DNA from: an uncultured virus (IMG/VR IMGVR_UViG_3300010391_000003)
Lineage: Duplodnaviria; Heunggongvirae; Uroviricota; Caudoviricetes
IMG/VR virus record: IMGVR_UViG_3300010391_000003
Strand: one strand, 5' to 3'
Length of the DNA stretch: 20,000 nucleotides
How positions within the stretch are numbered: position 1 is the stretch's first letter; each line of letters begins with the position of its first letter. The notes under the pieces were generated by a model, which did not search any database, had not been told where the DNA came from, and saw only the letters and a program-made list of their open reading frames with translations. The translations under genes were made by a program, and so were the position numbers. Of the stretch, positions 3,165 to 19,496 are shown in pieces.

Positions 3165-3257
3165 GTTCATGTGATGTTTTTAGAGACTTTTTATAAGAAA
3201 TTATATATGAATATATTAATTGAAAGAAACCTTACTTGATTGGGAGACGGAATAAAT

Positions 3258-4982
3258 ATGGAAAAAATTATAAACGATTATATAGGAAAAACAGACTGGA
3301 GAGTACACGAAAATGCAAACACATCATATTCAATATCTGGTTTAAAAAGTTATATTGCTGCAAGTATATTGGCAAAAGACTCTCTTTCGAAATTACCAGA
3401 GCCGATAAGAGAAGCACACAAACGAGGAGCTATACATCTTCACGATTTAGACGGTTCTTTATATGTCCCATATTGTTATGGCGCAGACCTTCAGCAACTT
3501 CTTTTAGAGGGTTTAAAGAATCCTGTCGGAAGTAGTTCAACACCTGCAAAACACTTGGATACAGCAATAGACCACATTGTTAATTATATTTATATTTCTC
3601 AATCAGAATTTAATGGAGCACAAGCATTTTCAAATGTTGATACACTTCTTGCACCATTTGTAATAGGAAAAGATTACAAATATGTAAAACAACAAATACA
3701 GAGATTAATATATAATATTTCATATCCGCTAAGAAGTGCTTTTCAAACACCATTCTTTAATGCTTCATTTGATATTATACCTCCTAAACATATGAAAGAT
3801 GAACCTATTGTTGTCGGTGGAAAAACAGACGAGAAATTATCATATGGTGATATGCAAAAAGAAATGGATATGATAAATTCTTCATTTCTTGAATTAATGA
3901 TAAGTGGAGATTCAAAAGGAAAACCATTTACATTTCCAATACCAACATATGGTGTTACAAAAGAACTGTTGAGAAAGGATGATGATGTTACAAGACTTTT
4001 ATATACATTAACAGCCAAATTTGGTTCGCCAAACTTTCAAAATTATATAAAATCTGGAAATGATCCTTCTGATGTTAGAAGTATGTGTTGTAGAATGTCA
4101 TTGGACATTGCAAAGTTGAAATCTCGTGGTCTTTGGAATATGGGAAATAGAACAGGATCTTTGGGAGTAGTCACAATAAATCTAAATCATGCTTCTAAAG
4201 ATGGAGAAGAAAAATTTATAGAAAATATAGATTCTGTATATGATTTATCTGTAGAAGAACTTTTAATAAAACATAAATATATACAAGAGGCATTTGACAG
4301 AGGATTACTTCCATTCACAAGACAATATTTGCCAAATAAAGATCCATTTAGAACATTTTTTAATACAATCGGAATTCACGCTATGAATGAAGCTTGTATA
4401 AATATGTTTGAATCAAATATAGAATCTAATCAAGATTTTGTTGTTGACATTTTAAAACACATAAGACACAGAACTGATGAAACGACAGAAGAAACGGGAC
4501 TCTTGTTTAACTTAGAAGAAACTCCATGTGAAGGTGCTACACGTCGATTAGCAAAACTTGACAAAAAATTAGGACTTCCAACACAGGGAGAAGAATCACC
4601 ATATCTTACAAATTCTACACATTGTCCAGTTAATACAGGATTAGATTGGATACAAAATGTAAGAATCCAGGAGAAGTTTAAACCATTTTATTCTGGTGGA
4701 ACAATATTACATGGATTTATTGGAGAAGAAATATCACCAGAAAGTGCCAAACATATAGTAAAACAGATGACTTGTGAAACAAAAATACCTTATTATAATG
4801 TAACGCCAACATTTTCTCATTGTAATAATCATAGTCATATATCTGGAAATGTACCAATATGCCCGAAGTGTAATGAAGAAACCTTGGTGTACTCACGTGT
4901 GGTTGGATATCTGCAACCCACAATCAAGTGGAGCGACTCCAAAAAAGAAGAATTTAAAGATAGAAAAATGTATAAGATGTGA
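3258..4982 (+). CDS. nrdD: Anaerobic (class III) ribonucleoside-triphosphate reductase, no ATP-cone
   Basis: ENAN, IHLHDL, PYC, GAQAF, FTFPIPT, RSMCCR finger loop, FNLEETPCE, C-terminal CxxH/CxxC and glycyl-radical loop YSRVVGYL. ATG 3258 preferred as start. Confidence 0.95.
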   Translation: MEKIINDYIGKTDWRVHENANTSYSISGLKSYIAASILAKDSLSKLPEPIREAHKRGAIHLHDLDGSLYVPYCYGADLQQLLLEGLKNPVGSSSTPAKHLDTAIDHIVNYIYISQSEFNGAQAFSNVDTLLAPFVIGKDYKYVKQQIQRLIYNISYPLRSAFQTPFFNASFDIIPPKHMKDEPIVVGGKTDEKLSYGDMQKEMDMINSSFLELMISGDSKGKPFTFPIPTYGVTKELLRKDDDVTRLLYTLTAKFGSPNFQNYIKSGNDPSDVRSMCCRMSLDIAKLKSRGLWNMGNRTGSLGVVTINLNHASKDGEEKFIENIDSVYDLSVEELLIKHKYIQEAFDRGLLPFTRQYLPNKDPFRTFFNTIGIHAMNEACINMFESNIESNQDFVVDILKHIRHRTDETTEETGLLFNLEETPCEGATRRLAKLDKKLGLPTQGEESPYLTNSTHCPVNTGLDWIQNVRIQEKFKPFYSGGTILHGFIGEEISPESAKHIVKQMTCETKIPYYNVTPTFSHCNNHSHISGNVPICPKCNEETLVYSRVVGYLQPTIKWSDSKKEEFKDRKMYKM

Positions 4983-5007
4983 AAAAATTACGGTAGATGA
5001 TATAATA

Positions 5008-5415
5008 ATGTTTCTTTTTTATTTTATTTTATTTATTATTTTTATTTATCTAATAATAAAACTTTTAAGCGGAACAAGAGAACTATATATTGATGAGAAT
5101 GGATATTACAGATATGTATATAATCAAAAACTTGTTCATCGAGATGTTGCATATAAATATATTTATAAAAATAATAAACATAAATATCCCCTAAGATTTA
5201 GAAATTATCAGGTACATCATAAAAATAGAAATAAATTAGATAATGATGTTGAAAATTTACAAATTGTCACAAGAGAAGAACACGAAAAAATACACGGAAT
5301 TACAAAAATTAATAGAGAATGGTCTCGATGTAGTTGTTTGGATAAATATGGACAACAAGTAAATCATTGCACAGATTGTGGAAATCATAAATATTTGCCA
5401 GATATTTATCGATAA
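5008..5415 (+). CDS. HNH endonuclease with N-terminal hydrophobic segment
   Basis: YIDENGYYR, LVHRDVA, VHHKNRNKLDNDVENLQIVTREEHEKIH. Likely start ATG 5008 gives MFLFYFILFIIFIYLIIKLL; C-terminal Cys cluster. Confidence 0.8.
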   Translation: MFLFYFILFIIFIYLIIKLLSGTRELYIDENGYYRYVYNQKLVHRDVAYKYIYKNNKHKYPLRFRNYQVHHKNRNKLDNDVENLQIVTREEHEKIHGITKINREWSRCSCLDKYGQQVNHCTDCGNHKYLPDIYR

Positions 5416-10537: not shown

Positions 10538-11032
10538 ATGAGTAAAAAATTTATAATGTTGTTGGTGTTATTATTTCTAATATCACCAGTTTTGGCTTTG
10601 CAACAAACATCAGGAGCAATAAATCTTTCTGTAGAGCCTGGAAATAGTGTAGTAGGAAAATATGGTGTCAGAAACGATGAAAATGTTAGTGTCGACATTA
10701 ATTTCAATGTAACAGGGGATGCTTCAAAATTTATAACTTATGAAAAAGTTGTTACTCTAAATCCGAATGAATTCAGATACATTAATATTACTGCGAATGT
10801 TCCGAAGGATTATGTCGGAAGCAAAAATCTGACAGGAACAATATATGCTCTCAAAGAGGGCAAAAAAGGTGGACAAGTCCAAATTAATATCAGATTAGGA
10901 AAAAACATAAATCTTAATATAGTAGAATCACCTATATCAACACCAAAGGTGAGTGGATTTTCATCATTAATGTTCATAGGCATGATCTTTATGGTCTATG
11001 TCGTGATAAAAATTCGTAAAACGAATAAATAA
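10538..11032 (+). CDS. Exported beta-rich protein with PGF-CTERM-like (SGF) anchor
   Basis: Signal peptide, N-x-S/T sequons, C-terminal VSGF + TM + basic tail. Confidence 0.75.
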   Translation: MSKKFIMLLVLLFLISPVLALQQTSGAINLSVEPGNSVVGKYGVRNDENVSVDINFNVTGDASKFITYEKVVTLNPNEFRYINITANVPKDYVGSKNLTGTIYALKEGKKGGQVQINIRLGKNINLNIVESPISTPKVSGFSSLMFIGMIFMVYVVIKIRKTNK

Positions 11033-11034
11033 AA

Positions 11035-11050
11035 TATGTTTTAAAACATA
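11035..11050. promoter_or_regulatory. Perfect 16-bp palindrome abutting the RBS
   Basis: TATGTTTTAAAACATA immediately before AGGAG. Confidence 0.3.
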
Positions 11051-11061
11051 AGGAGAAATAA

Positions 11062-12032
11062 ATGAATACAAAAATAACAGCAATTTTAATGTCGTTACTC
11101 ATGGTTACAATTTTTGTTCCATCAGCAATGGCATCAGAACAGAGTATTAATCTTTGTGAAAAAGTAATTAATACTGGTGGATCGTGGGGAGTATGTAATC
11201 CTAATGATGCAAATATGGCACAAGGAACATTTACATATAATAATGTAGGTTCAACACTTTCAATTATTGAAGCATCAGCGACAGGATTATCAAGTGATGA
11301 TGGAACAGAATTTTCATTATATATTATAAAGATACAGATTCATCACATGTACTTGCTTCAACAAAATCAGTAAATGTACTTGCAACAGAATTATCTTCTG
11401 GTAATAGTGTAACATTCAATCCAATAGATATAAATACTGGAAATATACCAGCAGGAGACGATATTAATCCAAAAGGAAAGATCTGGATTGTACCATCAGA
11501 AAAGATTAATGTAGATGGAACTCTCGATTGGACAGGATACGCAAATGGAGCAATATTAGAAGATTTCTTATTTGAATCTGATAGTATCGTTCAAACATCG
11601 ACTGATGGATTAACAGTTCAACAGAGAATGGGTGGAATAATTTATACAGCATCTGTGTTGCCTTCTTCAGCATCTTCAGTTGGTAGTGTAACAGTATTAC
11701 AATATGTTCCAACAACAATAGGAATTGCAGCAACTGATGTGAATTTTGGTTCATTATATCAGGGAAGAAGTGGTTCTGGAACATCAACAATTTCAGTAAC
11801 TGAACAATCAGGAACAGATGGATTTAGACCCATAACAGTTGGTTTATCAGTATCTTCAGGAACATGGAATGTTGTTGGAATTACAACTATTATAAATAGT
11901 CTAACTCCAGAAAGTGTAGTTGTCGAGAATACAACACCAGTGACTTCTGTAGCAACTCTAACAGTAAATGTTGGAGCAAATGTTCCAGCAGGAGTATATA
12001 CATCAGAAATAACAGTAAGCGCAACATTTTAA
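11062..12032 (+). pseudogene. Exported surface protein (about 323 aa) split by a 1-nt deletion near 11317-11321
   Basis: The signal-peptide ORF shifts at TTATATATTATAAAGAT. The -1 frame continues (I)YYKDTD...GKIWIVPS...LDW...FLFESD...MGGIIY without a stop to 12032, joining the two ORF-track pieces. Confidence 0.8.
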
Positions 12033-12062
12033 GGATTGAAATATATCCTTAATTTATTTTTT
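12029..12062 (+). terminator. Hairpin plus T-tract
   Basis: TTAAGGAT-8 nt-ATCCTTAA then TTTATTTTTT. Confidence 0.45.
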
Positions 12063-12075
12063 GAGGTATCGAAAT

Positions 12076-12870
12076 ATGAACAAAAATCTTATAATTATTC
12101 TAATCATAATATTATTATTTATTGGTTCAGCTAATGCAATTACAGGGACTGTGACTGTATTACCTAAAAATTCTACACCGACTCCAACTCCTACTCCAAC
12201 TCAGATACTATCATATGGAAGTTCTTCAGGAGGAAGTTCTGGTGGAAGTGGTGTAATAGTTGACGAAAATTTTATCAACATTGAATCACACTACACTATT
12301 GAAAAAGATGTTTCTAGCAGGTATGACACAACCTTCTCATTCAGTGGAACAACAATATACGAAGTTGTTATAAAGAAAACAGAGAATGAAGTATTAGTAT
12401 CTGGTCGTGTTGACGATTTAGTAGCAAGATCGTCAAGAACACCAACTCAGCCTGATGGAGAAGTATATAAATTTGTTAATGCATACATAGGAACAAAGAG
12501 ATTCGGAAGTGCTGAATTGAGATTTAAAGTCCCAGTTTCGTGGACTCTAAATAAGAATATGCAGATGTTGATATGGCAAAATAATGTTTGGATTCCTTTG
12601 GAGACCACAAAATTGAGTGAAGACTCTGAATATGCATATTTTAGTGCAATAACAAATCACTTCACTAATTTTGTAATAGTTGGAAAACAATCTTCAGTAC
12701 CAGAAGTTGTTCCAGTTGTAACAACTCAACCAACTACAGTACCAACAGAAGTAATACAGATAACACCAGTAACAACAGAAGAAACAAAGTCGGGATTTAA
12801 TGCCACTGCAGCAATAGCTTTTGTTTTAATATTAGTGGCAGTTGTATATATATTTATGAGAAAGAAATAA
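12076..12870 (+). CDS. PGF-pre-PGF domain cell-surface protein
   Basis: Signal peptide, (PT)n and G/S linker, VYKFVN...FKVPVSW...W..LET...YAYFSA.T.HF, Thr/Pro linker, KSGF + TM + RKK. Start ATG 12076 after GAGGT. Confidence 0.8.
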   Translation: MNKNLIIILIIILLFIGSANAITGTVTVLPKNSTPTPTPTPTQILSYGSSSGGSSGGSGVIVDENFINIESHYTIEKDVSSRYDTTFSFSGTTIYEVVIKKTENEVLVSGRVDDLVARSSRTPTQPDGEVYKFVNAYIGTKRFGSAELRFKVPVSWTLNKNMQMLIWQNNVWIPLETTKLSEDSEYAYFSAITNHFTNFVIVGKQSSVPEVVPVVTTQPTTVPTEVIQITPVTTEETKSGFNATAAIAFVLILVAVVYIFMRKK

Positions 12871-12906
12871 TACTTCTTTTTCATATTTCTTTTTTTATCA
12901 ATAATC

Positions 12907-12916
12907 TTTATATACT
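12907..12916 (+). promoter_or_regulatory. TATA box, leaderless promoter
   Basis: TTTATATACT exactly 21 nt before ATG 12938; preceded by an oligo-T terminator-like tract. Confidence 0.65.
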
Positions 12917-12937
12917 ATTAGTTTCATATATTTGTCT

Positions 12938-13099
12938 ATGGACTTTAATACAAGACGGAACATAGTGCTGATAGGACTTGTCGTTTTAATATTGTCGACA
13001 CTTGGTATATTTCTTGCTCTTGGAAGAATGGAAGAATCACTATCAATAGAAATGATATTTGGACGAATATATCATATAATTTTCGGGAGATCATTATGA
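12938..13099 (+). CDS. 53-aa single-TM protein
   Basis: MDFNTRRNIVLIGLVVLILSTLGIFLAL...; ATGA overlap with the next gene. Confidence 0.65.
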   Translation: MDFNTRRNIVLIGLVVLILSTLGIFLALGRMEESLSIEMIFGRIYHIIFGRSL

Positions 13100-13686
13100 A
13101 AAAAATATTATTTATATCTCTTTTAATTTTAATTCCCACAGCTTCTTCATATGAGGTAGATTATTCTCACGATATCTGGCATCCTATTAATGCGTCTTCT
13201 TTTATAACTCCAGACAATCCTGTGGTAAATTTAGTTGCTAAAGGTCTCTATTTAGATGATGATGGTAAATTAAGATATAAAAATTTAAAAGTCATTAAGT
13301 GTGAAAATTGTTGGGGAAAAACATGGTGTAAAAATCTTGTCTTCACAAATAATTATGTTTATGATGTTAATATATATGGAGAAGATAAATGGTTAATGCC
13401 AGAACAATATATTTTAGGTGGATTTAATGGTGATTGTGATGATTGGGCAGTAACAGTCGCATCTATTATGTTATCTGGAAATTTAACAGTAGATGACATT
13501 CCACAAGTTGTTCCAGCAAGAGTGATTCTAGGATATTTTGGTGGTCAACGAGATGCTTATGTCGAATATAAACTTCATAATCAGACGTGGATAACATCCA
13601 CAGGATATAATTATGAACAAAAAGTTTCTACTACAATATATACAATTAAAGATGAACAATTTAAGCCACTAATATATTTAAATTAA
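13096..13686 (+). CDS. Exported transglutaminase-like protein
   Basis: Signal peptide, FITPDNPVV, W..P, GDCDDWA, ARVILG...DAYVEY. Confidence 0.75.
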   Translation: MKKILFISLLILIPTASSYEVDYSHDIWHPINASSFITPDNPVVNLVAKGLYLDDDGKLRYKNLKVIKCENCWGKTWCKNLVFTNNYVYDVNIYGEDKWLMPEQYILGGFNGDCDDWAVTVASIMLSGNLTVDDIPQVVPARVILGYFGGQRDAYVEYKLHNQTWITSTGYNYEQKVSTTIYTIKDEQFKPLIYLN

Positions 13687-13696
13687 AGGAGAAATA

Positions 13697-13963
13697 ATGT
13701 CTGATATAATCGAAGCACACAAATATTGTCGAAATAATCGCGAAAATATAACAAAATCAAATAAATGTGGTTGTTTTTGTTGTTTAAAAATATTTAAAAC
13801 ATCAGAAATAACAGAATGGATAGATAGAAGCAATATCGGGAATGATACAGCATTGTGTCCTTATTGTGGTACAGATTCTGTTTTGCCTGAAATTTCAGGA
13901 TATCCAATAACAAAATCATTTCTCAATAAGATGGAAACATATTGGTTCTCAACTATACCATGA
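13697..13963 (+). CDS. Conserved Cys-rich hypothetical protein
   Basis: AHKYC..NR, CGCFCC, EWID, TALCPYCG.DSV; AAGGAG RBS. Confidence 0.8.
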   Translation: MSDIIEAHKYCRNNRENITKSNKCGCFCCLKIFKTSEITEWIDRSNIGNDTALCPYCGTDSVLPEISGYPITKSFLNKMETYWFSTIP

Positions 13964-14214
13964 ACGCAGAATTATTTATGACGATTGCAAATATCGTCTT
14001 TCTTATAGGAACTTTCTTTCTTTTTATGAGAGTTCTTAAAAATCGAGATTCTTTAAAAGATTTTGATAAAATGGGTTCGTTCTTAACATTTTTTGGAATG
14101 CTTTTTTCAACAACATCATTAGTGATACTAAAAATGTGGATATCAATACTTTTCTCAACTCCAACAGTTTTATTTTGGGGATTTGTATTTTTGTTTTCAA
14201 TAAGAAATAAGTAG
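13960..14214 (+). CDS. Small 3-TM membrane protein (PQ-loop/SemiSWEET-like topology)
   Basis: Three hydrophobic segments; ATGA overlap; no literal PQ motif. Confidence 0.6.
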   Translation: MNAELFMTIANIVFLIGTFFLFMRVLKNRDSLKDFDKMGSFLTFFGMLFSTTSLVILKMWISILFSTPTVLFWGFVFLFSIRNK

Positions 14215-14230
14215 CATAAACTTATATAAC
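14207..14230 (+). promoter_or_regulatory. ATAAGTAGCAT element plus TATA box (copy 1)
   Basis: ATAAGTAGCAT-aaa-CTTATATAAC, ending 32 nt before ATG 14263. Confidence 0.55.
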
Positions 14231-14262: not shown

Positions 14263-14403
14263 ATGTCACATAAATCGTATGTAAAATTAGAAAAGAAAGA
14301 AGAAAAAGCAATCGAAAAAATTTCTGAGGGTTTGAAAGAATTAAAAGATGTGGAAAGAAAAGAAAGAAAATTAGACAAGAAAATGCACAAAATGAGAAAA
14401 TAA
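14263..14403 (+). CDS. 46-aa K/E-rich coiled-coil microprotein
   Basis: AAGGAG RBS; MSHKSYVKLEKKEEKAIEKISEGLKELK... Confidence 0.65.
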   Translation: MSHKSYVKLEKKEEKAIEKISEGLKELKDVERKERKLDKKMHKMRK

Positions 14404-14426
14404 GATTATTTATCATTTTTAACAAT

Positions 14427-14451
14427 ATAAGTAGCATTTAATTTAAATACT
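14427..14451 (+). promoter_or_regulatory. ATAAGTAGCAT element plus TATA box (copy 2), heads the microprotein array
   Basis: ATAAGTAGCAT-ttaa-TTTAAATACT, ending 32 nt before ATG 14484. Confidence 0.55.
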
Positions 14452-14483
14452 ATTACATTCATTATAATACTAGAGTTGATTAT

Positions 14484-14669
14484 ATGGTCAGAGAAGTAAT
14501 GGAAGATGGAAGAAGACATGTTCATATTTTAGCAAGAAGTCTTGAAGCAGCAAAAAATAAAGCCAGACCTGTCAAAAATTTAAAAATAAGTACTGGAAAT
14601 CTTGTCGAAGCCGAAAAACATGAAGAGAATGGAATGAAGACATATTCATTCAGAATAAAGGATGTGTAA
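14484..14669 (+). CDS. Array microprotein
   Basis: 61 aa; ARSLEAAKNKA helix motif. Confidence 0.7.
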   Translation: MVREVMEDGRRHVHILARSLEAAKNKARPVKNLKISTGNLVEAEKHEENGMKTYSFRIKDV

Positions 14670-14671
14670 TT

Positions 14672-14824
14672 ATGGCATATAGAGTAGAAGAACTTGGATT
14701 CCCTCATGTTGAAGTCGGAACATTTACATTTTTGCATAACGCAAGAATCGTTGCAGACGAATATACAAGTAAACATAAGGGTGTAAAAGTGAGAATAGTA
14801 AAATTAATACCAATAAAAAGGTGA
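14672..14824 (+). CDS. Array microprotein (50 aa)
   Basis: MAYRVEELGFPHVEVGTFTFLHNARIVADEY...VRIVK; not in ORF track. Confidence 0.7.
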   Translation: MAYRVEELGFPHVEVGTFTFLHNARIVADEYTSKHKGVKVRIVKLIPIKR

Positions 14825-14828
14825 AATT

Positions 14829-14999
14829 ATGGGAATATATAAAGTAGGAAAAAATTTAAATAGTATAGCAAGATCAGGAACATGGGCAGACACACTTGAA
14901 GAAGCAAAAGATATATTAGCAAAGAAAGAAAAAGGATATCATATATATCACTTAGTTATTGATAAGAAAAAAGATATGATAAAATTTGAGAGATTATAA
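14829..14999 (+). CDS. Array microprotein (56 aa), divergent YKV family member
   Basis: MGIYKVG...ADTLEEAKDIL...GYHIYHL. Confidence 0.7.
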   Translation: MGIYKVGKNLNSIARSGTWADTLEEAKDILAKKEKGYHIYHLVIDKKKDMIKFERL

Positions 15000-15001
15000 A
15001 T

Positions 15002-15223
15002 ATGTCAAATATGTGGGATCTACCAGAACAACATCATCCAATACATGGAAAGAAAAAGAGAAAGCATGTTGAACATCACGAACGTGAAGAACATGAAGAA
15101 AGACCAGAAGAACACTTCGAAAAGGTCGGAAAGGTAATTACAGATGCAGCAATAACAACAGTCGGAATTGGTGTAATTGGTTCGTTGGGAGTAAATTTAA
15201 TAAGTTCATTAAGACCAAAGTAA
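15002..15223 (+). CDS. His/Glu-rich microprotein with C-terminal hydrophobic segment
   Basis: HHPIHGKKKRKHVEHHEREEHEE then a Gly/Ile/Val-rich segment. Confidence 0.7.
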   Translation: MSNMWDLPEQHHPIHGKKKRKHVEHHEREEHEERPEEHFEKVGKVITDAAITTVGIGVIGSLGVNLISSLRPK

Positions 15224-15236
15224 TGAGGATATAAAT

Positions 15237-15458
15237 ATGACAAAATATCAAGTTCTTGGACATGGTGGAATATTCTGGGAAATAACACACATAAAACCTA
15301 AAATATTTGATACATATGAAGAAGCCAAAGAATATGGAGATAGAATTGTTAGTTCATATAAAGACCAACACGGAAAACTTCCTTTTCTAGTATGGTATAA
15401 AATAGTAGAATTAACTAATGTTGGTGCACACTTATTAGAATTAACAAATTTGAGGTAA
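15237..15458 (+). CDS. Array microprotein
   Basis: MTKYQVLGH...FDTYEEAKEYG. Confidence 0.7.
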   Translation: MTKYQVLGHGGIFWEITHIKPKIFDTYEEAKEYGDRIVSSYKDQHGKLPFLVWYKIVELTNVGAHLLELTNLR

Positions 15459-15460
15459 AT

Positions 15461-15676
15461 ATGGGAATAATTGTCGGAAGATGGCTAAAAGATGGAAAAA
15501 ATAAAGTTTTTTCTACTCAATTTAAAACAGCACGTCGTGCAAAAATAATAGCAAATAGACTCGCAAATGAGGCATCAAAAACAGACAAAAATCATGTTTA
15601 TGAAGTTGGTAAACCATTTAGACACGGAGCATTCTGGAGTATTTATATTCATAGAATAAAAGTAGGAAGGTATTAA
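15461..15676 (+). CDS. Array microprotein, basic
   Basis: FKTARRAKIIANRL...WSIYIHR. Confidence 0.7.
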   Translation: MGIIVGRWLKDGKNKVFSTQFKTARRAKIIANRLANEASKTDKNHVYEVGKPFRHGAFWSIYIHRIKVGRY

Positions 15677-15679
15677 AAC

Positions 15680-15844
15680 ATGACAAAATATAAAGTAGCA
15701 CTAGGACACGATCTTCGTGGAATATCATATCATCGAAATATAGAAAGAGCAAGAGAATCGTTAAAGAAAGTCGGAAAACCATACCACATATTTCACTATA
15801 ATGAGCCAACAAAATTCTATGAAGGTGCATGGAGACCAACTTAG
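15680..15844 (+). CDS. YKVAL-family microprotein 1 (54 aa)
   Basis: MTKYKVALGHDLRGISYHRNIERARESLKKVGKPYHIFHYNEPTKFYEGAWRPT. Confidence 0.8.
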   Translation: MTKYKVALGHDLRGISYHRNIERARESLKKVGKPYHIFHYNEPTKFYEGAWRPT

Positions 15845-15853
15845 GGGATAAAT

Positions 15854-16042
15854 ATGACAAAAAGACAACCAGATTATTATAGAGTAAAAGAAGATGGAAG
15901 ATTTTGGGCAACAAAATTTCAAACGAAATTGAGAGCAGAAGAATTTGCAAAAGAAAGACGAAATCTTATTACAGGAACTGGAAAGAAAGGAATATATGTT
16001 TATGCTATAAGAATAAAAAGAAATAAAGATAGATATTGGTAA
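15854..16042 (+). CDS. Array microprotein, basic
   Basis: YYRV...FQTKLRAEEFA...IYVY. Confidence 0.7.
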   Translation: MTKRQPDYYRVKEDGRFWATKFQTKLRAEEFAKERRNLITGTGKKGIYVYAIRIKRNKDRYW

Positions 16043-16058
16043 GAGGAGTGAATAAAAT

Positions 16059-16310
16059 ATGGTAGAATTGTGGTTTAAAGGATTTAAAAGACATTCTGGA
16101 TTTGACAAAACAAAATCTGTAGAACAGAATTTAAAAATAATGTATAAGAATGCGAAACTTAAAAATCCTGCTGATCGATGGAGAAGAGTTGGGAGACAAG
16201 CCACAGCACTTGCAAATTTAACAAAAGATTTTGAAACACAAATCAGAGCAAGAACTGTAGCAAATGAAGCATTCAATAAATTAGAAATACTTCACGAATT
16301 GGGAAAATAA
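16059..16310 (+). CDS. Array microprotein, basic helical
   Basis: GAGGAG RBS; RQATALANLTKD... Confidence 0.7.
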   Translation: MVELWFKGFKRHSGFDKTKSVEQNLKIMYKNAKLKNPADRWRRVGRQATALANLTKDFETQIRARTVANEAFNKLEILHELGK

Positions 16311-16311
16311 T

Positions 16312-16467
16312 ATGACAGTCTATAAAGTAGCTTTAAGATCAGATGTAAGACAATTATCCACACATTACTATCTAAGTACTGCAAGAGCAGCACAAAGACA
16401 AGCAGGTTCAGAATATCACATATATGGTTGGGATTCTGGAAAAAGTGAATGGTATAAGGTGGAATAA
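16312..16467 (+). CDS. YKVAL-family microprotein 2 (51 aa)
   Basis: MTVYKVALRSDVRQLSTHYYLSTARAAQRQAGSEYHIYGWDSGKSEWYKVE. Confidence 0.8.
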   Translation: MTVYKVALRSDVRQLSTHYYLSTARAAQRQAGSEYHIYGWDSGKSEWYKVE

Positions 16468-16469
16468 AT

Positions 16470-16676
16470 ATGACACATTATCCATATGACGAACCAAGTC
16501 CAAGTCACCATTACTTAAAATTTAATGGTAAAAAATATCATTGGATTAGAACAGTTAAAGGAAAATCTGCAGCAGAAAATATAAAAATACAATATAAAAA
16601 GACAGGAAGTCTCATAAGAATAGTACCATCTGGAGTAAGAGGATGGTATAAGGTTTATGTATGGTATTTAAAATGA
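16470..16676 (+). CDS. Array microprotein, basic
   Basis: FNGKKY...KSAAE...G.LIRIV...YKVYV. Confidence 0.7.
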   Translation: MTHYPYDEPSPSHHYLKFNGKKYHWIRTVKGKSAAENIKIQYKKTGSLIRIVPSGVRGWYKVYVWYLK

Positions 16677-16686
16677 AGGAGTAAAT

Positions 16687-16851
16687 ATGGCAAATTTTAA
16701 AGTGGCATTAACACCAAAAGGTAGAGCACATTCTGAACACAAATTACTTAGAAGAGCAATAAAATCGACGCATGAAGTTATATTCAGAAGTGGAAAGATG
16801 TATAAGATTTATCAATGGAGTCCATTAAATAAAAAATGGATAAGAGTATAA
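16687..16851 (+). CDS. YKVAL-family microprotein 3 (54 aa)
   Basis: MANFKVALTPKGRAHSEHKLLRRAIKSTHEVIFRSGKMYKIYQWSPLNKKWIRV; AAGGAG RBS. Confidence 0.8.
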   Translation: MANFKVALTPKGRAHSEHKLLRRAIKSTHEVIFRSGKMYKIYQWSPLNKKWIRV

Positions 16852-16854
16852 ATT

Positions 16855-17043
16855 ATGCCAAAATCAAAAACAAAAGAATCAATTTTGTGGAATGTCTTTG
16901 ACAGACGTGATAGAGAAAAAGATCATATCGGTGTAATTAGAGCTGAAACAAAATCTGATGCAAAAGCAAAAGCTGTCAAGAAATATGGAAAATATTCTGA
17001 TGTTAAGAAAATGCCATGGGGACAAACATGGATATATAAATAA
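16855..17043 (+). CDS. Array microprotein, basic
   Basis: WNVF...IGVIRAETKSDAKAKAVKKYG. Confidence 0.7.
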   Translation: MPKSKTKESILWNVFDRRDREKDHIGVIRAETKSDAKAKAVKKYGKYSDVKKMPWGQTWIYK

Positions 17044-17053
17044 AAAATAAATT

Positions 17054-17218
17054 ATGGCAAACTATAAAGTTGCATTATCAGCAGATGTTCGTGGTGTTTC
17101 TGTCCACAACGATTTAAAACCTGCAAGACAATCACAGAAAAAGCACGGAAACAAATATAAAATATTCAGATGGATAGGTTCATCTGGAGAAAAAGGATAT
17201 TGGTCTGAAATGAGATGA
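17054..17218 (+). CDS. YKVAL-family microprotein 4 (54 aa)
   Basis: MANYKVALSADVRGVSVHNDLKPARQSQKKHGNKYKIFRWIGSSGEKGYWSEMR. Confidence 0.8.
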   Translation: MANYKVALSADVRGVSVHNDLKPARQSQKKHGNKYKIFRWIGSSGEKGYWSEMR

Positions 17219-17221
17219 ATT

Positions 17222-17377
17222 ATGTTATTACTTGGTGCAACACTTAGAATCATCAGAGATGATTTAGATGAAGCAGTACACGGAAGAAATCCTCTCAAGA
17301 AAAAGTGTGAGTGGTGTAAAGACTTATATAATACAAATCTTAATGAAAGACAAAGAAAGTTAATATATGGAAGATAA
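17222..17377 (+). CDS. Last array microprotein (51 aa)
   Basis: MLLLGATLRIIRDDLDEAVHGRNPLKKKCEWCK...; the only array member with Cys. Confidence 0.6.
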   Translation: MLLLGATLRIIRDDLDEAVHGRNPLKKKCEWCKDLYNTNLNERQRKLIYGR

Positions 17378-17419
17378 AATTTCTAATATTTAAGTCTATT
17401 TGTTTTTTATACATTTCTC

Positions 17420-17622: not shown

Positions 17623-18807
17623 ATGAACAAGAAAATGTTAATAGTCATTGCCCTAGTAGGCATAGGACTATGGGCTCTCCCTCAGACAATGTCATTGTTT
17701 GCAGGACAGCATAGTTTTGTCAATATTGACGCAACTGGAAACCAGATTAATTGTGTAAAATGTCACGGTGATGTTCAGTCAGAACTATCTGGAACAGCAG
17801 TAAATGCAAAAACTGGAACAGTTACACCACATGCAACATTCAAGTGTGAATATTGTCATAGGATCGAAGCAGGAGCAGCATCAGGTGATAATGCTTATGC
17901 AATTGTAACTTATACCAATGTTTCACCAACAGTATCAGGTATAAAGAACATGAGAACCATCGCAATTTCAATGGCAGATTTCGAAGAAGAAAACTTCCCA
18001 ACGACCATCACAAATGATGTTACAACCATAGCACAGGTTGAAGCCGCATGGGGTAAAAAGTTTGCACTCGCATACGGTGGCAAGGCTCAGGCAGCACTGA
18101 GTCCAAAATCAGGAACTTATGTATCATCAGGAGTAACATATACGATTGGTTCAGAAACAGACACTGGAGTCTTAAGTATAGCTAATGAATATGAAAAATC
18201 ACTATACAATACAAGCACCAATCCAGGCACTCCTTATGATACATCAGCAAGAAAGACGGAAGGTATGATTTTGAATAAACAACCAGGAGATATTGGCAAT
18301 TGGGCAGCAAGTTCAAGATATTTCACACCAAACCTTTATGATGTAGGTTCAAAAGCAGTTAATCCAGGTAGCGAATATCACGCAGCAAGTCTCGTCTCTT
18401 GTCTAGAATGTCATGGTGGAGCAGAACCACTTGGTCACTATAGTAGAATATTAGATGGTGAAAAGACACAATCATGCGAACAGTGCCACTATGGTTCGAC
18501 AAATAGATGGGTTGAACTTGGTGCAGGTGGATTTGGTCTTCTTGGCGGATCTGACACTGGTGCAACAGAAGCACACAAAGAGTTCCAACTAACAGATGAT
18601 GGTATGACAAGACAGGTTGCAGTTACTGGTGGAAATGCAAGTAATGGTGCTTGTGTAGCATGTCATACTCACGTAGCAGTAGATATTAAATATCAGAAAC
18701 CATCTGAATATCAATTTGATGTAAACTTCTTTGATGATGGAAGCGAAGGAATAGGAGGATATACAATTGGTGGAACAACATATACATACAGTGGAACACC
18801 AAGATAA
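17623..18807 (+). CDS. Exported pentaheme c-type cytochrome ('FAGQH' N-terminus)
   Basis: Signal/TM segment; CVKCH, CEYCH, CLECH, CEQCH, CVACH; several extra His as potential distal ligands; AAGGAG RBS. Confidence 0.9.
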   Translation: MNKKMLIVIALVGIGLWALPQTMSLFAGQHSFVNIDATGNQINCVKCHGDVQSELSGTAVNAKTGTVTPHATFKCEYCHRIEAGAASGDNAYAIVTYTNVSPTVSGIKNMRTIAISMADFEEENFPTTITNDVTTIAQVEAAWGKKFALAYGGKAQAALSPKSGTYVSSGVTYTIGSETDTGVLSIANEYEKSLYNTSTNPGTPYDTSARKTEGMILNKQPGDIGNWAASSRYFTPNLYDVGSKAVNPGSEYHAASLVSCLECHGGAEPLGHYSRILDGEKTQSCEQCHYGSTNRWVELGAGGFGLLGGSDTGATEAHKEFQLTDDGMTRQVAVTGGNASNGACVACHTHVAVDIKYQKPSEYQFDVNFFDDGSEGIGGYTIGGTTYTYSGTPR

Positions 18808-18884: not shown

Positions 18885-19496
18885 ATGAAAATGAGGACAA
18901 TAGCACTAATATTTCTTTTAATTTTAATACCTATTTCAAGTGCTATACAACTTGATATAAATCATAAAGAGGTATATTGTTTTAATTGTCATGGTGGTTC
19001 CCAAGGATATTCTGTTGGACAAGATGAATATTGTGGTGATTGTCATTCATTATATTCAGGAAATCAAAATTTTAAAGAACAACACGAAGCAATATCGTGT
19101 AAAGGTTGTCATAAGACATATAGTTTGGAAACCTTTCATCCAGTACATAAAAATATTTCTTGTAATACATGTCATATAGATAATACACTTCCAGATAATA
19201 AATATTATGATTGTCTATCTTGTCATATTTCTGGATTACATTCTACTCATTTAGAAAAATCATGTGAAACCTGTCATCAAAATACAATCTCACCAAAACC
19301 TACTTTAGAAGTTATACAAAAAACTACACAAAATTGTGATGAAGATGGTTGTTGGGAAGAAATTGTATATGAAAATAATATAAACGAAACAAAATCTATA
19401 AATACTTCAAAACCAATTACTAATTACAAAAGGTTCACCATTTTACAGATTTTGGTGAACATATACGAAAAAATAATAGGTGATATATATGGGTAA
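18885..19496 (+). CDS. Exported hexaheme c-type cytochrome
   Basis: Signal peptide; CFNCH, CGDCH, CKGCH, CNTCH, CLSCH, CETCH within about 100 aa. Confidence 0.88.
   Translation: MKMRTIALIFLLILIPISSAIQLDINHKEVYCFNCHGGSQGYSVGQDEYCGDCHSLYSGNQNFKEQHEAISCKGCHKTYSLETFHPVHKNISCNTCHIDNTLPDNKYYDCLSCHISGLHSTHLEKSCETCHQNTISPKPTLEVIQKTTQNCDEDGCWEEIVYENNINETKSINTSKPITNYKRFTILQILVNIYEKIIGDIYG

Follow-up and report, generated by a model that had tools for sequence, protein, structure and literature searches.

The window analysed here, a 20,000-nucleotide stretch of the uncultured viral record IMGVR_UViG_3300010391_000003 (part of a contig of 74,890 bp), contains at positions 14263 to 17377 an array of sixteen small open reading frames (ORFs), all on the plus strand and named m01 to m16 in the order of their starts. 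Analysis of the array suggests that m02 to m16 most likely constitute one operon under a TATA-type promoter element at 14429-14483; that the block is a mosaic of about ten microprotein families unrelated in sequence, not one family; and that its products may be small basic modulators. The anatomical part of this explanation is highly probable; the functional part, in which the products would bind nucleic acid or protein as modulators and serve as an accessory module, is offered tentatively; and we give an accessory operon of small basic modulators, taken as a whole, about an even chance of being correct.

The sixteen ORFs encode 46 to 83 amino acids and lie exactly where the initial annotation of the window placed them. 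The spacers between successive genes from m02 to m16 are 2, 4, 2, 13, 2, 3, 9, 16, 1, 2, 10, 3, 10 and 3 nucleotides, which confirms the tight packing of fifteen genes (1-16 nucleotides) described there; m01 is 80 nucleotides from m02. Together the sixteen ORFs of at least 46 amino acids occupy 94.9% of 14263-17377, a packing well above chance: in simulated sequence (500 first-order Markov runs) the number of such ORFs averages 1.9 and does not exceed 6, and their cover averages 10% and does not exceed 32%. The G+C content at codon positions 1, 2 and 3 is 0.42, 0.35 and 0.18 in the array and 0.44, 0.39 and 0.19 in the long genes of the window. Tetramers resembling the Shine-Dalgarno (SD) sequence, scored against a consensus, precede 8 of the 16 array starts at -8 to -16, whereas the rate is 5 of 68 for the remaining ATGs of the block and 14% for random positions, and the stop-start junctions are often TAA-AT-ATG or similar. 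The array genes are under purifying selection, the ratio of nonsynonymous to synonymous substitution (dN/dS) being 0.08-0.67 in all eight orthologue pairs, with dS near saturation. Fourteen genes were searched or open to matching, and 13 of them have homologues elsewhere: those of m02, m05, m10, m13 and m15 by tblastn on related metagenome loci, and those of m03, m04, m06 to m09, m11 and m12 by protein searches. At least 13 of the 16 ORFs are genuine genes.

Fourteen of the sixteen proteins have isoelectric points (pI) of 9.1-11.2, and net charge reaches +12; the exceptions in pI are m05 (6.7) and m06 (6.9). Fifteen proteins are free of cysteine, as had been reported, and m16 has two: cysteine accounts for 2 of 969 residues in the array versus 123 of 4823 in the other plus-strand genes of the window (binomial P = 4.7e-9). 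The motif CxxC occurs in 9 of 16 non-array ORFs of 100 amino acids or fewer and in 6 of the 10 of these at 5.5-10.5 kb, so that the earlier statement that most micro-ORFs of that region carry it also holds. The proteins are less uniformly aromatic than had been implied, with a combined phenylalanine, tryptophan and tyrosine content of 2-18%.

The element in front of m02 (14429..14483, plus strand) comprises the nonamer AAGTAGCAT and a TATA-like box, TTTAAATA (14442-14449), 34 nucleotides from the m02 ATG. Within the window the exact nonamer occurs in just one other place, a promoter-like motif at 14209..14229 (plus strand) where it is followed by TATA-like TTATATAA (14222-14229), 33 nucleotides before the m01 ATG; the distance from motif to TATA-like box is 4-5 nucleotides in both copies. 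From TAGCAT (14432) to the ATG, the element before m02 is identical at 46 of 53 positions to the related metagenome locus L004, compared with 114 of 186 positions in the m02 coding DNA and 12 of 28 farther upstream, and the promoter pattern has an exact match at L004 7375-7392. The apparent promoter that the initial annotation noticed before m02 is in this sense a conserved element, and both elements are regarded as putative promoters. A run of five T residues at 14416..14420 (plus strand), between m01 and m02, is a possible archaeal oligo-T terminator; with its own promoter-like motif and this run behind it, m01 is probably a separate monocistronic unit. A run of six T residues at 17403..17408 (plus strand), 26 nucleotides past the m16 stop, may be the terminator of the block. 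A sigma-70 promoter scan gave 25 sites versus 25.9 expected, which is not relevant to an archaeal element; Rfam gave no match in the window at the gathering threshold, no tRNA was found there, and Tandem Repeats Finder returned short, low-scoring AT-rich repeats only.

Five array proteins, m04 (14829..14999, 56 amino acids), m08 (15680..15844, 54 amino acids), m11 (16312..16467, 51 amino acids), m13 (16687..16851, 54 amino acids) and m15 (17054..17218, 54 amino acids), all on the plus strand, form on sequence similarity a single family, which we call YKVA after its N-terminal strand. We define it as stand-alone proteins of about 50-60 amino acids that match the family hidden Markov model (HMM), with M-x-x-[YF]-K-[VI]-[AS] as their N-terminal strand, a conserved histidine near residue 18, a conserved alanine near residue 24 in the helix, the motif G-x-x-Y-[HKN]-[IV]-[YF] and a C-terminal tryptophan strand; all five belong to it. 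An all-versus-all BLASTP comparison links m08, m11, m13 and m15 at E values of 1e-5 to 1e-12 (m08 with m15, 1.6e-12; m11 with m15, 1.6e-11) and m04 with m08 at 1.3e-4. A test HMM built without the m04 clade recovers the five members at E values of 5e-7 to 3e-28 (m08, 1e-24), the divergent m04 being found at 5e-7 and at an hhalign probability of 91.5%. The remaining 11 array proteins match YKVA at HMM E values of 0.05 or more and hhalign probabilities of 4% or less, and the one ancestor that had been suggested for all sixteen is accordingly not supported. The mean z of shuffle-based Smith-Waterman comparisons is 8.2 within YKVA and 0.06 between YKVA and the other candidates for an alpha/beta fold.

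A YKVA profile search of 1.84 billion representative proteins returned 34 clusters at E <= 0.001; two of these, the long proteins P0043 (fibronectin-III repeats) and P0051, were rejected as spurious, and the 32 kept are stand-alone proteins of 49-80 amino acids. In a maximum-likelihood tree of 53 members and 53 columns, which leaves the deep forks unresolved, the five copies of the window fall into five separate well-supported clades, each beside orthologues from other contigs (m04 with P0053; m11 with P0030 and the copy at L005:424). As the window copies are nearer to orthologues on other contigs, the expansion is old rather than a recent diversification, with each lineage retained; of the expansion proposed earlier, what stands is that 5 of the 16 genes are real paralogues by BLASTP and HMM. 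The m15 subfamily is the most widespread: m15 is 85% identical to its copy in locus L003 and 80% to that in L004, with dN/dS of 0.08-0.18, and m13 is 80% identical to L006 666-830, with dN/dS of 0.20. A protein 96% identical to m08 (P0002) is encoded on a 295,108-bp contig and another member (P0012) on a 236,479-bp contig, and the family is thus shared with much larger elements or with chromosomes. The idea that YKVA is an HNH or beta-beta-alpha-metal nuclease, in which a catalytic histidine at a strand end is combined with a metal-binding asparagine or histidine in the next helix, was rejected because the candidate metal ligands are not conserved: H18 is nearly invariant, but m08, m11, m13 and m04 do not keep the N19/D20 and H31 seen in the m15 subfamily. 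YKVA has no HNH match in Pfam.

The other members of the block, again all on the plus strand, are more diverse. The first gene, m02 (14484..14669, 61 amino acids), has a homologue at L004 7431-7607 (56% identity, tblastn E 5e-17, dN/dS 0.36), and a second L004 ORF (7837-7992) has a C-terminal GMKTY motif in common with it and was added to the alignment of this family by eye. A single homologue, P0071 (49 amino acids), is known for m03 (14672..14824, 50 amino acids), which profile comparison does not relate to the other array families. The His-rich, charged N-terminal part of m05 (15002..15223, 73 amino acids) precedes a Gly-rich hydrophobic C-terminal segment, residues 49-67 having a 19-residue Kyte-Doolittle mean of 1.82; m05, whose homologue lies at L004 7612-7827 (34% identity, tblastn E 4e-10, dN/dS 0.67), is probably a tail-anchored membrane microprotein. 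One homologue, P0070, was found for m06 (15237..15458, 73 amino acids). Its start (MTKYQVLGH) resembles that of m08 (MTKYKVALGH), as had been pointed out, but the likeness ends after 6 residues, and the hhalign alignment of m06 to the YKVA profile covers residues 1-6 only, at a probability of 2-4%.

Among the families other than YKVA, hhalign pairs only m07 (15461..15676, 71 amino acids, pI 10.9; homologues P0063, 83% identity, and P0069, 56%) with m09 (15854..16042, 62 amino acids, pI 10.4; three homologues, 74-80% identity), at a probability of 32.7%. Shuffle-based Smith-Waterman z values are 4.8 for m07 with m09, 4.5 for m02 with m09 and 2.9 for m02 with m07, so that m09, perhaps with m07 and m02, to which it is weakly linked, represents a second family. 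The basic protein m10 (16059..16310, 83 amino acids), helical-looking by inspection, is 65% identical to L003 704-949 and 59% to L004 8235-8480, with dN/dS of 0.30-0.36; among the genes comparable with the fetched loci it is second to the m15 type in the number of loci that conserve it. Three homologues (P0065, P0067 and P0068) are known for m12 (16470..16676, 68 amino acids), for which profile comparison finds no relation to YKVA. The 3' ends of m11 and m12 (16435-16460 and 16629-16654) are 85% identical over 26 nucleotides and encode SG..(E/G)WYKV in two proteins that have no other relation, which might reflect recombination between array genes. The sole searched gene without a homologue is m14 (16855..17043, 62 amino acids): the protein search returned its own record, P0062, alone, and its top match in PHROGs (E 0.0019) is a family of unknown function. 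The last gene of the block, m16 (17222..17377, 51 amino acids), the only one to encode cysteine (CEWC), has no SD-like tetramer before its start and is the weakest-supported gene of the array; m01 (14263..14403, 46 amino acids), outside the block, is rich in lysine and glutamate (pI 9.8), helical-looking by inspection and preceded by an SD-like GGAG at -11, and tblastn against the related metagenome loci gave no match to it.

Libraries of known families do not accommodate these proteins. None of the sixteen reaches the cut-off in Pfam-A (best E 0.03, 15 bits versus 25) or NCBIfam 20 (best 14 bits versus cut-offs of 200-320); the best matches in PHROGs v4 (E 0.0019-0.04) are all to families of unknown function; and PADLOC-DB 2 gives no match at E <= 0.1. 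Run against PDB sequences, the YKVA and m10 profiles returned nothing below E 0.5; m10 has no match in Pfam, PHROGs, NCBIfam or the PDB; and in the ESM Atlas m15 scored no higher than 0.87 and retrieved neither an informative named cluster nor a stored model.

The content of the array varies among relatives, a comparison that the initial annotation had proposed. A metagenome scan gave six loci, four of which (L003 to L006) are true relatives; L007 and L008 were rejected, their match lying inside a 373-amino-acid ORF on a contig of 36.8% G+C with no array context. L004 is syntenic with the window and consists, in order, of nrdG, homologues of m02 and m05, the second m02-like gene, an unrelated gene of 75 amino acids, homologues of m10 and m15, a gene of 49 amino acids and two multihaem cytochromes. 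In L003, a cytochrome comes after two YKVA genes, an m10 homologue and three microproteins with CxxC; in L005, a cytochrome comes after four YKVA copies packed into 1.9 kb, of which one is truncated or frameshifted; and the 8.2 kb of L006 contain two YKVA genes and no cytochrome. YKVA thus numbers 5 copies in the window and 2, 1, 4 and 2 in L003, L004, L005 and L006, and the genes common to the window are m02, m05, m10 and the m15 type in L004 and m10 and the m15 type in L003. The idea of a two-gene cassette (YKVA plus a partner) was dropped because L005 and L006 do not preserve the alternation. The damaged copy in L005 (789-951) is of m15 type and is recovered by tblastn in two pieces in different frames (residues 1-30 and 28-54); it is a pseudogene with a frameshift or else an error of assembly. 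Between array and cytochrome, L003 (1676-1900) and L005 (985-1188) encode a conserved protein of some 70 amino acids ('KAGDDVWS.HYGQGYIIELLDKKGYKGDAMVSF...') that is absent from the window. A nucleotide search of the array against GenBank phages gave no match, a scan of IMG/VR with the single protein m15 gave two spurious short matches only (L001 and L002), and pattern scans of IMG/VR for the m15 subfamily, m10 and the m11-type subfamily found no relative.

AlphaFold2 models of m15 (25-row alignment) and m09 (4 rows) bear on the small beta-beta-alpha-beta fold that the initial annotation had proposed for the whole array. The m15 model is confident (predicted local distance difference test score, pLDDT, 86.7; predicted template modelling score 0.67) and has a beta-beta-alpha-beta-beta arrangement, with strands at residues 4-7 and 16-18, a helix at 21-31 and strands at 36-41 and 49-53; the best m09 model, of moderate confidence (pLDDT 75.8), is beta-beta-alpha-beta, with strands at 8-13 and 16-22, a helix at 25-38 and a strand at 47-52. 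Foldseek found nothing at E <= 0.001 for m15 in the PDB or for either model in BFVD, where the neighbours are uncharacterized phage proteins (E >= 0.04, TM 0.4-0.68). Against 48,161 chains, VIA-align gave best Z scores of 4.2 (m15) and 5.0 (m09), and 10 of the 50 listed chains (6k8n, 4ev1, 9ayn, 6has, 2ybv, 6ozd, 7d34, 1x60, 8jzf and 8jw0) are common to the two models, which would be consistent with a similar general arrangement and does not imply common descent. The predicted arrangement therefore appears in m15 and m09, but the single-fold claim would be true of a subset at most; m05, with its 19-residue hydrophobic stretch behind a His-rich charged part, is placed outside it. The weak structural neighbours include ClpS, the RuBisCO small subunit, SPOR (1x60), PsaD and a topoisomerase III subdomain (6k8n), with which the models share a beta-hairpin, one helix and one or two more strands in a two-layer sandwich. 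The alignments extend over 36-53 residues at 4-19% identity and Z 2.5-5.0, every score being well below the level that the documentation of the tool treats as meaningful; the likeness is one of arrangement and not of membership.

Comparisons with anti-CRISPR proteins, SPOR and AP2, which the earlier reading had called for, revealed no relation in Pfam, PDB and fold searches. SPOR has an RNP-like fold with a beta-alpha-beta-beta repeat; the structural match to SPOR 1x60 is weak (Z 2.5 for m15, 3.2 for m09) and has no counterpart in Pfam; likewise, no AP2 or Arm-DNA-bind match was found in Pfam at E <= 1. In the AP2/Arm domain the helix comes after an antiparallel sheet of three strands (beta-beta-beta-alpha), whereas two strands precede the helix in the m15 and m09 models. 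Prediction of a complex of m10 with m15 scored 0.00 against a mark of 0.32, which is evidence neither way.

The explanation that we favour is that m02 to m16 would be transcribed together from the conserved TATA-type element, apart from m01, and the inner genes translated through SD-like motifs and junctions of the TAA-AT-ATG type; that the products may be small basic modulators binding nucleic acid or host proteins, made together as a host-interaction accessory module of the element; and that members of the array would have been gained, lost and duplicated over time. The modulator reading is based on the basic character of the products, their small independent domains, the layout as an operon, the conserved promoter, and genes that are each conserved but vary in their presence among relatives. 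Viruses and extrachromosomal elements of methane-oxidizing archaea consist mostly of genes of no known function and are thought to change the metabolism of hosts relevant to methane emissions. The block offers a bounded set of candidates (YKVA, the second similar family, m10 and the conserved promoter) beside nanowire-type cytochromes. Should any product turn out to bind DNA, RNA or proteins of host defence, it would be among the first functional handles on such elements; if none does, the block is an ordinary viral small-gene cluster without known families. YKVA and the other families are themselves new; variable small-gene clusters are already familiar from viral genomes.

Several observations weigh against this explanation. 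Function is argued from composition and context alone, and family-library, PDB and fold searches matched no DNA- or RNA-binding family or fold. The predicted folds cover YKVA (through m15) and m09, with 10 of the 16 proteins outside, and confidence in m09 is moderate only, its five models having pLDDT values from 48 to 76. Allowing one mismatch, AAGTAGCAT occurs 7 times in the window versus a chance mean of 5.5. Runs of five or six T residues also occur within the block, at 14729 and 15507 (2 observed, 2.4 in simulation), which makes the run past m16 weak evidence for a terminator. A search of sequencing runs listed no RNA run, and the only run containing the sequence may be that of the source sample. 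The host assignment is indirect: neither the m15 subfamily nor the cytochrome gave a relative in pattern scans of species-representative genomes, an absence that carries little weight because the scans used one to six short peptide patterns.

The block could instead be an anti-defence island whose microproteins bind and inhibit CRISPR-Cas or other defence proteins of the host, which we consider rather unlikely. A small, family-less, variable cluster on a virus-like element, with a multi-copy paralogous family, is what such an island might look like, and archaeal rudiviruses carry multi-copy small-protein families including the anti-CRISPR AcrID1. However, no solved anti-CRISPR is significantly similar: the matches listed are AcrIIA14 in sequence (E 0.56) and, in structure, AcrIF9 (Z 2.6) and AcrIC9 and AcrIIC5 (Z 3.3 and 3.2; chains from 8hjj and 8f3k). 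The Pfam scan revealed no Aca-like helix-turn-helix regulator in the block, the array proteins are strongly basic, in contrast to the acidic nature of many anti-CRISPRs, and each paralogue is under purifying selection (dN/dS 0.08-0.41) rather than evolving fast.

That all or nearly all of the sixteen are diverged copies of one beta-beta-alpha-beta microdomain expanded in place is unlikely. Its appeal lies in the models of m15 and m09, which are unrelated in sequence, agree in the order of their elements as far as the third strand and have 10 of their 50 listed VIA-align chains in common; in the strand-strand-helix-strand pattern seen by inspection in m02, m03, m06, m07, m12 and m14; and, more tentatively, in short likenesses in DNA between m04 and m06 (at D-T-x-E-E-A-K, 83% over 23 nucleotides), m03 and m09 (86% over 21 nucleotides) and m11 and m12. 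However, the eleven proteins without a profile relation to YKVA, the near-zero mean z between groups, the age of the YKVA lineages, the hydrophobic tail of m05 and the helical look of m01 and m10 all speak against a single microdomain. A bolder reading, to which we attach a similarly small probability, is that YKVA, perhaps with m09, m07 and m02, is a new class of microprotein that is confined to archaeal mobile elements, binds nucleic acid or protein and has a fold so far missing from the PDB; its five or more ancient paralogue lineages would be inherited together in a single operon on account of their joint action. Mixed oligomers of such proteins might reprogramme the host, or the proteins might govern production of the adjacent cytochrome nanowires in methane-oxidizing archaea.

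It is very unlikely that the array encodes genome-condensing basic proteins or particle-associated proteins packaged with the DNA of the element. The high pI and net positive charge of 14 of the 16 proteins would suit this role, and the secreted and membrane proteins encoded at 10538-13686, which precede the block, could be structural; but a structural role for these neighbours is conjecture, about ten families of variable content are unlike a conserved packaging protein, and no archaeal chromatin protein was matched in Pfam or among the fold-search matches listed.

Still more improbable is the proposal that the microproteins are accessory factors in the regulation, export or assembly of the nanowire-type multihaem cytochromes downstream. 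Two such cytochromes follow the array (17623-18807 and 18885-19496, with 5 and 6 CxxCH sites), the first matching PDB 8E5G chain A (E 5.4e-18), and the array ends just upstream of an 8E5G-like cytochrome in 4 of the 5 contigs with YKVA (the window and L003 to L005). These four loci are syntenic relatives, however, and the adjacency may therefore be inherited; L006 has YKVA genes with no such neighbour within its 8.2 kb, and, except for m05, the array proteins lack signal peptides and long hydrophobic segments. A cytochrome 84% identical to the first (L009 10001-11125) occurs in a 74,458-bp IMG/VR contig in which no YKVA gene was found and the genes upstream are entirely different, so that the cytochrome gene seems mobile between differing elements. 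Finally, the probability that the ORFs are chance open frames or non-coding is negligible, because, small size and the lack of homologue support for m14 and m16 notwithstanding, their cover relative to simulation, purifying selection, homologues, SD-like motifs and the confident m15 model refute this reading for at least 13 of the 16.

With respect to the element that carries the array, the window has about 30% G+C, all credible genes are on the plus strand, and it also encodes a dCMP deaminase, NrdD, NrdG, HNH endonucleases and several secreted or membrane proteins. A preprint on Methanoperedens elements (bioRxiv 10.1101/2023.08.02.551345) describes them as low in G+C and reports a virus that encodes two extracellular cytochromes, one with five haem sites and the other with six. 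By resemblance in its G+C content, its mostly hypothetical genes and its two extracellular cytochromes with 5 and 6 CxxCH sites, the contig may be a virus or extrachromosomal element of an anaerobic archaeon of the Methanoperedens type. Unlike Borgs, it has no perfect tandem repeats of the Borg kind in the 20-kb window, and text searches of preprints on Methanoperedens elements brought up no comparable arrays of small proteins or paralogues. In having many genes for 45-85 amino acids on one strand with no known domains, a content that varies between relatives and one family in several diverged copies, the array is like the small-gene clusters of phages and archaeal viruses. It differs from the named members of such clusters in lacking any sequence or fold relation to them, in being strongly basic, and in having old paralogues each of which is conserved. 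An example of a multi-copy small-protein family in such clusters is the AcrID1 family of Sulfolobus rudiviruses.

Two neighbouring genes deserve mention. Just upstream of the array, 13697-13963 encodes a Cys-rich protein of 88 amino acids (7 Cys, CxxC) that matches phrog_30788 (E 1.3e-22), a viral family of unknown function. An HNH endonuclease ORF (4849-5415; Pfam HNH_3, E 4e-9) overlaps the last 134 nucleotides of nrdD (3240-4982) in another frame, and may be an insertion of the homing-endonuclease type.

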